Positions 39,131-40,248 are shown, counted from the first letter of the stretch. The stretch: DNA of 44,611 nucleotides from a virus (IMGVR_UViG_2703718850_000006:1-44611), one strand, 5' to 3'. Notes: a model not told the origin generated them from the letters alone. Program-made: numbers and translations.

Positions 39131-39157
39131 GCCCACTCCACGAGTGGGCTTTTTTTT
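39131..39157 (+). terminator. rho-independent terminator after cI
   Basis: gcccactc-cac-gagtgggc followed by tttttttt. Confidence 0.75.
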
Positions 39158-39178
39158 GAAAAAAAATCGATAAACCGA

Positions 39179-39207
39179 TTGACGTCGCAAATAGGATAAC
39201 CTATTAT
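39179..39207 (+). promoter_or_regulatory. sigma-70 promoter (pL-like) with palindromic operator
   Basis: TTGACG-N17-TATTAT; spacer contains perfect inverted repeat AATAGG-ATAA-CCTATT (39190..39205). Confidence 0.6.
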
Positions 39208-39247
39208 CATGACATAAATATCGAACTCACCAAAACAATCACAGAGG

Positions 39248-39679
39248 ATGAGGAAAATGTCATCGTATATGGGGTTACCAACAAATAAGCAAGATGCTCT
39301 TGAAAATATTCAGCTTTTAGTAGGGGCTAGTGGTCTACTGTATAGCAGCAATAACCCTGAGTTAATGGAGCTTGCCAGCTCCATCCTCGCTGTAACTCAA
39401 AAATATAGCCTCACGGCGGCGCATTCATGCAAACAAAATTTAGCTATTAATTCACAAAATCGCATACGCACCCAACGCGAAGCCTGCGGCTTAACAACAG
39501 CCGAACTCGCCAGTCTGCTCGATCTCGATGAAGAAATCATCATCCAGTGGGAAAGCGGAAAGTATGAACCAACCATCAGTATGCTTATCCCGCTGGCAAA
39601 TGTTCTTGGTTGCGATCCGATGTGGCTGTTAACTGGTGGGCCTATTGCCCGGGCTTCATCAGATACCATGGGGCAATAA
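39248..39679 (+). CDS. XRE-family HTH protein (C-terminal HTH)
   Basis: 143-aa ORF; C-terminal GLTTAELASLLDLDEEIIIQWESGKYEPTISMLIPLANVLG is a classic XRE HTH; alternative start at 39257. Confidence 0.6.
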   Translation: MRKMSSYMGLPTNKQDALENIQLLVGASGLLYSSNNPELMELASSILAVTQKYSLTAAHSCKQNLAINSQNRIRTQREACGLTTAELASLLDLDEEIIIQWESGKYEPTISMLIPLANVLGCDPMWLLTGGPIARASSDTMGQ

Positions 39680-39902
39680 TATCGCCGCGCTTCTCTATAA
39701 GCTGAGAGCGAATTTCACGAAGTTCTTCAACTGAGGAGCCGAAAGCCAGAGTGACATAATCGCCACTTCTGCCATCAAGATACATACGGACATTTCTCTC
39801 AACCATTGCGGAAACAGTCTCAATATGAAAACACTTCTGAGACTCGCTATATAGCAGAACATATAAGTCAGCTGAGGAAGCCATGAAAAAGCTCGAAAAC
39901 AT
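39642..39902 (-). CDS. hypothetical protein (86 aa), antisense between plus-strand genes
   Basis: ORF with RBS GGAGAA; 3' end overlaps XRE gene, 5' end overlaps next plus-strand ORF. Confidence 0.3.
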   Translation of the reverse strand: MFSSFFMASSADLYVLLYSESQKCFHIETVSAMVERNVRMYLDGRSGDYVTLAFGSSVEELREIRSQLIEKRGDIIAPWYLMKPGQ

Positions 39903-40248
39903 AACTGTTCTCCATGTTGATGACTTTGATTATGCAAACCAGGAATTTCTCCCGGAGGTTGTAAAGGCAATAGATGTAGCCGATATAGTGATTAGAGGAA
40001 AGAGAATTGTCAAAAACAGGCTCGCATGCACTTCAGGAGCAATGACAGAAACAACCTCACAACAAGATGATTATGAAGGCATTTGTCTGGAGCCTGATTC
40101 ATTTGCGGTAAATGTTTATCATTTATTGCATGCAACACAGGTATTACATATGTCCAGTAATCATGAAACAAAAACACTTGGCAGCGAAATTCTGAATTTT
40201 GCATGTGAATATGCAAAAGCTGCTGCCGAAAAAGAATTAGCGCAATAA
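39883..40248 (+). CDS. hypothetical protein (121 aa)
   Basis: ORF with RBS GAGGAAG. Confidence 0.45.
   Translation: MKKLENITVLHVDDFDYANQEFLPEVVKAIDVADIVIRGKRIVKNRLACTSGAMTETTSQQDDYEGICLEPDSFAVNVYHLLHATQVLHMSSNHETKTLGSEILNFACEYAKAAAEKELAQ

Follow-up and report, generated by a model that had tools for sequence, protein, structure and literature searches.

A gene nested antisense in the early-left control region of a phiP27-like prophage: a candidate noncontiguous operon

Introduction

Can two phage genes on opposite strands, each beginning inside the other, both be real, and does such an arrangement regulate them? The question is raised by a locus in a virus sequence of 44,611 nt (IMGVR_UViG_2703718850_000006:1-44611), the whole of which we call the window. 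The window is a phiP27-like lambdoid (pro)phage, and the region under study (39131-40248) holds an early-left promoter, pL, which is probably repressor-controlled and is followed by three genes: an XRE-type regulator on the plus strand, an 86-aa protein on the minus strand and a 121-aa protein on the plus strand. The initial annotation of the region saw in the overlaps either antisense regulation or a sign that one of the open reading frames (ORFs) is not real.

Operons described as noncontiguous enclose an oppositely oriented gene that has a promoter of its own, and the transcripts of the operon and of the enclosed gene are mutually repressive (PMC11034616); in phage 80alpha such an operon couples a gene pair to the lysogeny-lysis switch (PMC11087260). 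In phage P22, sieB is a member of the early-left operon and is expressed from the prophage (PMC8022706, PMC10883804). Sequence comparison suggests that the region is probably the pL control region of a phiP27-like prophage driving a noncontiguous operon, in which transcription from pL and expression of the antisense gene would be mutually exclusive.

Three overlapping genes downstream of pL

The genes and their Shine-Dalgarno (SD) sequences are as follows.

39248-39679, plus strand: two-domain XRE regulator (143-aa ORF), with an N-terminal helical domain and a C-terminal HTH_3 domain
39642-39902, minus strand: gene of the 86-aa protein, phrog_6104 family, antisense inside the proposed pL operon
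39909-39912, minus strand: SD of the 86-aa gene (GGAG), 7 nt upstream of ATG 39902 and inside codons 9-10 of the 121-aa gene
39883-40248, plus strand: gene of the 121-aa protein (phiP27 L08; phrog_5451, E 2.9e-81)
39874-39878, plus strand: SD GAGGA of the 121-aa gene, read from the sequence, within the 86-aa coding sequence and within a 33-nt invariant run

The main alignment comprises 41 unique related E. coli sequences covering 39467-40300, and the counts of variable sites at codon positions 1/2/3 given below refer to it. The 86-aa ORF overlaps the 3' end of the XRE ORF by 38 nt and the 121-aa ORF by 20 nt, and it is intact in 41/41 of these relatives. In its stretch free of both overlaps the variable sites, counted in the minus frame, are distributed 13/8/27. 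Comparison of residues 8-50 with the Citrobacter and Salmonella homologues gives a nonsynonymous divergence (dN) of 0.10-0.13 at a synonymous divergence (dS) above 2, and dN/dS of the minus-strand ORF is approximately 0.05-0.3. By this substitution pattern, the 86-aa ORF is a real gene under purifying selection.

The 121-aa protein is full length, with an unvarying M1-K2-K3, in relatives down to 58% identity. The C-terminal half of its gene displays the distribution expected of a coding sequence (12/8/24); the N-terminal half displays 7/8/7, and its protein sequence is retained at 44-67% identity in Citrobacter and Salmonella, with dN 0.19 and dS 0.84 between loci L089 and L090. The 121-aa gene is altered in a few relatives whose 86-aa ORF is intact: L031 lacks 16 nt (the equivalent of 40072-40087), and L029 and L036 have a different C-terminus, near 40229.

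The XRE protein matches Pfam HTH_3 at residues 73-127 (E 2.5e-11; 43.9 bits vs a gathering cut-off of 23) and phrog_4836 (E 4.7e-46). This confirms the earlier assignment of the first pL gene to an XRE helix-turn-helix (HTH) protein rather than to N. Variable sites in the segment encoding the HTH are distributed 9/6/25, a pattern by which the regulator gene, too, is under purifying selection. Its start is probably ATG 39257 (SD AGAGGA 8 nt upstream; 140 aa). All three ORFs thus show purifying selection or protein conservation in diverged relatives, which refutes the suggestion that one of the overlapping frames is not real.

The length of the XRE ORF varies. In the window it ends after 38 nt of overlap with the 86-aa gene, and in most relatives (among them L006, L089 and L090) it extends 113-143 nt into the 3' end of that gene (the 39642-39754 region) with a low-complexity tail, for example EVTPPEQPKSEEQQHHDASQQ. 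In ASU11-type phages (L002, where it is ASU11 gp50; also L007-L014 and L085) the XRE gene encodes 237 aa. These phages have two copies of the segment for the last HTH helix (window 39587-39618), approximately 210 nt apart (L002 2642-2792 and 3001-3075), an arrangement suggestive of a recombination scar or of an additional inserted domain.

Constraint around the head-to-head overlap

The initial annotation had rightly noted that the minus-strand ORF overlaps both neighbours, but its further claim that the two start codons share a CATG does not hold. At 39882-39885 the CATG contains the plus-strand ATG and, read on the other strand, Met7 of the 86-aa ORF, not its first codon. Met1 (39902) and the GGAG are unvarying in the 41 E. 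coli sequences and in L087, L089 and L090, and Met7 is replaced by Thr in L040 and by Ile in P0006, which together rule out Met7 as the start. The A-to-G change that removes Met7 in L040 also makes the plus-strand ATG of the 121-aa gene a GTG. The CATG is a coincidence and the true overlap is 20 nt; gene callers give the identical head-to-head overlap in Citrobacter and Salmonella. With starts at 39902 and 39883, each gene's SD therefore sits within the coding sequence of the other.

Two further features are located here.

39800-40041: zone of suppressed synonymous variation, flanking the head-to-head overlap on both sides
39985-40013, minus strand: candidate promoter P86, TTGACA (40013-40008), 17-nt spacer, CACTAT (39990-39985), inside the 121-aa coding sequence

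Of the 47 third codon positions in 39903-40041, 7 vary, vs 76 of 194 in the remaining three coding segments (Fisher p 0.0018). Variability at first and second positions is the same throughout, at 13-16%. The alignment has its longest invariant runs, 39847-39879 (33 nt) and 39810-39832 (23 nt), in the 5' portion of the 86-aa gene, immediately upstream of where the 121-aa gene begins. An inverted repeat (39856-68 / 39899-911) could place an RNA hairpin at the two start codons; we rejected this candidate, as it is not kept in minimum-free-energy folds of diverged homologues.

P86 is conserved in 39 of the 41 sequences, and its hexamers read TTGATA/TACGAT in L089, TTGACA/CACTAT in L090 and TTGACA/CAATAT in L087. 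The last of these is a Salmonella remnant of the locus, where the opposite-strand ORF is frameshifted and has lost its ATG. Similarity between L087 and the window climbs from background to approximately 70% at the -35 element of P86, and lasts approximately 30 nt beyond the stop codon of the 86-aa gene. These boundaries make P86 a candidate for the promoter of an autonomous 86-aa cassette.

The pL promoter and its operators

The control region upstream of the XRE gene contains the following elements, listed together with the related sites on the other side of cI.

39131-39149 (39131-39157 including T8), plus strand: intrinsic terminator ending the cI transcript, with an 8-bp stem, a 3-nt loop and T8, from a promoter/terminator scan
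39179-39207, plus strand: pL-like sigma-70 promoter, TTGACG, 17-nt spacer, TATTAT, 10/12 matches by consensus scanner
39190-39205: OL1-like operator AATAGG-ATAA-CCTATT, a perfect 6-4-6 inverted repeat in the spacer and -10 element of pL
39165-39180: OL2-like operator AATCGA-TAAA-CCGATT, covering the first 2 nt of the -35 element, exact motif match
38371-38386: cI-cro intergenic operator TATCGG-AATG-CCTATA, exact match to ATMGR-N4-CCKAT
38302-38317: operator-like site AATCGC-ATCT-CCTATT with one mismatch, abutting the cro start codon and covering the cro SD

At 10/12, pL is the best promoter match within 37900-40700 in the consensus scan, and its -35 element reads TTGACA in relatives. A search of Rfam returned no families, only sub-threshold matches on the terminator. 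Perfect palindromes of the 6-N4-6 form number 19 in the window vs approximately 11 expected, so the form alone is not rare. The weight of the 39190-39205 palindrome comes from its position and from its match to the operator motif found in the right operator region (OR) and beside the -35 element. Exact sites of ATMGR-N4-CCKAT occur only at 38372-85, 39166-79 and 39191-204 in the whole 44.6 kb, and matches counted over both strands number five vs a mean of 0.49 in mononucleotide shuffles.

In the 7 loci with a related immunity region (approximately 85% identity) the motif is found at the same three positions with ATCGG half-sites. The OL2-like operator is unchanged across these loci, OL1 is replaced by AATCGG-yAAA-CCTATT, and the OR site is the perfect palindrome TATCGG-AAAG-CCGATA; the one-mismatch site at 38302-38317 (repeat D4) is fully conserved in related immunity regions. 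The earlier reading of a pL-like promoter with a palindromic operator is thus borne out by the terminator, the 10/12 promoter, the perfect 6-4-6 repeat and the shared motif. The motif has just three exact copies, all of them in the cI-cro intergenic region or pL, and the palindrome is among them; on motif grounds it is therefore an ordinary CI/Cro-type OL operator, to which CI and Cro would bind. This promoter-operator part of the locus is textbook lambdoid biology.

A candidate noncontiguous operon

The nesting that characterizes a noncontiguous operon is present here: the minus-strand 86-aa gene lies between the plus-strand XRE and 121-aa genes, and all three are coding. The scanner predicts no plus-strand terminator between pL and 40700 (39208-40700). 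From these elements we infer binding by CI, an active P86, transcription from pL that reads through the nested gene, interference in both directions and a role for the 86-aa protein, which would act together as follows. In the lysogen, CI (and Cro) would shut pL through OL1 and OL2. The 86-aa gene, whose ribosome-binding site and probably promoter lie within the first part of the 121-aa coding sequence, would then be transcribed unopposed, like prophage-expressed cargo in the lambda sieB position. After induction, pL would drive the XRE regulator, the 121-aa gene and further early-left genes, and its transcription would run antisense across the whole 86-aa gene. The antisense regulation proposed in the initial annotation is plausible as judged from sequence, and is strengthened by the suppressed synonymous variation and the conserved candidate P86.

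The layout can be compared with three systems. In lambda, as here, a promoter downstream of cI carries repeated operators that share the OR motif, with centres 25 bp apart in the window vs 24 bp for lambda OL1-OL2. N, the first pL gene of lambda, is followed at once by sieB on the other strand and then by the rest of the early-left operon; the 86-aa gene occupies the same slot. Unlike in lambda, the first pL gene is of the HTH_3/XRE type and not N, the OL sites found number just two, and nutL was not identified, no nut-site search having been made. The 86-aa protein is unlike SieB in being unrelated and soluble, and its gene overlaps both neighbours; BLASTP against lambda SieB gave no alignment, the sole PHROG match being phrog_6104.

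The S. aureus cases and the 80alpha ith/tha pair share with this locus a nested antisense gene, here with a candidate promoter of its own, which the operon transcript would likewise cover (PMC11087260, PMC11034616). The polarity would be reversed relative to 80alpha: the enclosing operon here is the lytic early-left one, and lysogeny would favour the nested gene. The proteins are unrelated. The third comparison is with direct homologues in phiP27 (L10-L09-L08), ASU11 and PhiR49_2, where parts of the region match at 86-97% DNA identity. The XRE gene of phiP27 is L10 and the 121-aa gene L08; the immunity region, pL and the XRE N domain are different.

Several observations weigh against the noncontiguous operon. 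The 86-aa gene is truncated in phiP27 itself, hence it is dispensable for phage viability. The -10 element of P86 matches at only 3/6 positions, placing P86 below the threshold of the consensus scanner, and no terminator was found for the minus-strand transcript. Recombination history could partly explain the low synonymous diversity. Finally, relatives whose operator half-sites differ have the same CI recognition helix as the window; the C/A half-site differences are therefore read as tolerated variation, and co-variation of operator and helix is a weak argument.

The overlaps might also be mere genome compaction, the 86-aa gene being real and expressed with the early genes or at a different time, and its antisense layout having no regulatory effect. 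Phage early regions often contain overlaps and small opposite-strand genes, the slot holds other minus-strand cargo in phiP27 and L005, and the convergent overlap ranges from 38 to 143 nt among relatives, all of which would fit. Compaction does not, however, readily account for synonymous sites being significantly more constrained near the head-to-head overlap than elsewhere, or for a 20-nt overlap with each ribosome-binding site within the other gene being kept across genera, and documented noncontiguous operons of like architecture cause mutual repression (PMC11034616, PMC11087260). We consider compaction alone unlikely, and prefer the noncontiguous operon. The locus is a candidate noncontiguous operon in a coliphage early-left arm, with two measurable signatures: constraint on synonymous sites, and a candidate promoter that a decayed remnant has kept.

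Paralogous domains in the XRE and 121-aa proteins

A connection between the two plus-strand genes is found at the protein level. The family phrog_4587 matches both XRE residues 3-60 and 121-aa residues 57-121, and BLASTP within the window aligns the two proteins with E 2e-4; the XRE allele of L005 shares 43% identity with the 121-aa domain (E 2e-9). In the AlphaFold2 (AF2) model the 121-aa protein has helices at 74-89 and 94-120, a hairpin with a predicted local distance difference test score (pLDDT) of approximately 80. The model is poor in the N half, and a Foldseek search against PDB gave no meaningful match. By sequence, the C-terminal helical hairpin of the 121-aa protein is paralogous to the N domain of the XRE protein, and the 121-aa protein has no HTH.

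SinR of Bacillus subtilis is an XRE-type HTH regulator with a helical oligomerization domain, and the second protein of that system, SinI, shares the helical domain and lacks the HTH. The 121-aa protein likewise shares the XRE helical domain without an HTH, a likeness of logic and not of family membership. Unlike in SinR/SinI, the helical domain is N-terminal and the HTH C-terminal here, and the 121-aa protein has an extra conserved N-terminal domain. No Pfam match to the SinI/SinR sequence families was found; only HTH families matched at E<0.1. The pair suggests a SinR/SinI-like control layer in relatives of Shiga toxin (Stx) phages.

These observations raise the alternative of a protein-level module, in which the 121-aa protein would antagonize or partner the XRE protein through the shared hairpin, in the manner of SinI and SinR, and the 86-aa protein would be a further partner of XRE. 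Beyond the paralogy and the predicted hairpin, the module draws support from two members of the 86-aa family, P0069 and P0176, in which the 86-aa domain and an XRE HTH domain form one protein, the order differing between the two (other members are tandem duplications). These are just 2 fusions among the family members examined, and HTH_3 is very common in mobile elements. The 86-aa gene also persists without either partner in the Salmonella remnant, family members elsewhere are not consistently beside XRE genes, and a SinI/SinR-type Pfam match is lacking. The module is thus distinctly unlikely as the explanation of the layout. A broader speculation, which we hold to be just as doubtful, combines it with the noncontiguous operon: the XRE protein, its SinI-like 121-aa paralogue and the 86-aa protein might form an undescribed second switch downstream of CI, the 86-aa protein being made in the lysogen and antagonizing or partnering XRE, and the layout gating the early-left arm as far as the integrase ORF at induction.

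Operator ownership and annotation of the locus

XRE-family proteins commonly bind palindromes in their own promoters, and the palindrome at 39190-39205 sits in the promoter of the XRE gene; it could thus be an autoregulatory operator of the XRE protein and not a CI/Cro operator. The motif, however, is also found in the cI-cro intergenic region and at the pL -35 element. Moreover, in L001, L002, L003 and L006, which have other immunity types and an XRE HTH approximately 90% identical, the pL and OR sequences are unrelated and the motif is absent. The XRE protein, which the initial annotation had listed among possible binders of the palindrome, is therefore very unlikely to be the one, and we retain CI/Cro.

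The existing annotations of the locus differ from the gene structure described here. RefSeq, through the Prokaryotic Genome Annotation Pipeline (PGAP), calls no gene for the 86-aa ORF in three loci, and of the 121-aa gene calls only a 68-aa C-terminal product (WP_000141089/90), leaving approximately 330 nt apparently non-coding. The 86-aa gene is likewise annotated in 0/3 of the ASU11, phiP27 and PhiR49_2 records. The 68-aa product has these coordinates:

L004 3415-3621; L005 2937-3143; L006 2576-2782: 68-aa PGAP product, equivalent to window 40042-40248

Its start at Met54 is ruled out by the purifying selection on the N half and by Met54 itself, which is not conserved. That the minus-strand ORF is spurious, or that only the C-terminal 68 aa are real and 39903-40041 is a non-coding divergent promoter region, is scarcely credible: the PGAP calls and the lack of codon periodicity in that interval among close relatives (7/8/7) would suit it, but stand against the low dN/dS and large family of the minus-strand ORF, the protein conservation of the 121-aa N half (44-67% identity; dN 0.19 vs dS 0.84), and its fixed M1-K2-K3. 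The 68-aa call and the absent minus-strand gene are annotation gaps. A real, conserved gene is accordingly missing from those RefSeq and phage annotations that we examined, in which roughly half of the neighbouring gene is annotated in RefSeq. Current understanding is not overturned by this, by the pL operators, by the candidate operon or by the possible SinR/SinI-like layer.

Genomic context and mosaic structure

The left flank of the region consists of immunity and antirepressor genes.

37098-37952, minus strand: antirepressor
38029-38301, minus strand: YdaS/Cro-like gene
38417-39109, plus strand: S24-type CI repressor, cI stop at 39109

To the right, plus-strand early-left genes are followed by an integrase-like ORF reaching the window end. 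The homologues in phiP27 are annotated L10 (HTH), L09 and L08, and the genes are also present in ASU11 and PhiR49_2; literature searches found no functional study of phiP27 L08-L10. Many E. coli lysogens carry the locus. With most relatives, homology in the XRE gene sets in sharply at 39467, the boundary between the N domain and the HTH domain. This mosaic joint implies that the XRE N domain travels with cI and pL, and the HTH domain with the downstream genes.

In phiP27 and L005 an insertion of approximately 520 bp truncates the 86-aa gene at codon 36 and brings another minus-strand ORF; the slot therefore takes different cargo. The insertion (L001 3672-4194, L005 2172-2693) replaces window 39638-39798. 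The inserted ORF has a good SD; it is annotated L09 in phiP27, and in L005 it encodes 75 aa and is coiled-coil-like.

The window contains a second pair of ORFs of 121 and 86 aa, at 42751-43116 (plus) and 42823-43083 (minus). Their sequences are unrelated to the pair described here and the equal lengths are a coincidence; the minus-strand member looks like a chance antisense frame.

The 86-aa protein family

The AF2 model of the 86-aa protein has a core at residues 10-73 (pLDDT approximately 90) with the order beta-beta-alpha-beta-alpha. A profile search returned 407 cluster representatives at E<=1e-3, that is, at least 407 clusters at 50% identity. Members are mostly 60-100 aa long and share the motif V-L-x-[WY]-S-x-x-Q-x-x-F-H-I-E-T ... 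D-Y. All of the scanned members (56/56) belong to phrog_6104, whose function is unknown, and a Pfam family was found in 0/56. A GIY-YIG nuclease fold, also considered, is not supported by a significant fold or sequence match with the catalytic Tyr, Tyr, Arg and Glu residues. The GC content does not flag the 86-aa gene as foreign.

The neighbourhoods of distant family members are mostly short contigs and uninformative. One 97-aa member is found between alpA and a replication-initiator/DnaB pair, beside an integrase (L095 3807-6323; L096 1935-4451), an island layout that resembles a phage satellite. The Salmonella copy (55% identity) lies in an island rich in insertion sequences, where intact XRE and 121-aa neighbours are missing, and the identical protein is recorded on many Salmonella contigs. 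In Salmonella serovar Teko and relatives (L087/L088 2633-2932 and flanks) the 86-aa cassette adjoins a Gly-rich ORF of 99 aa, which resembles the precursor of a bacteriocin or microcin.

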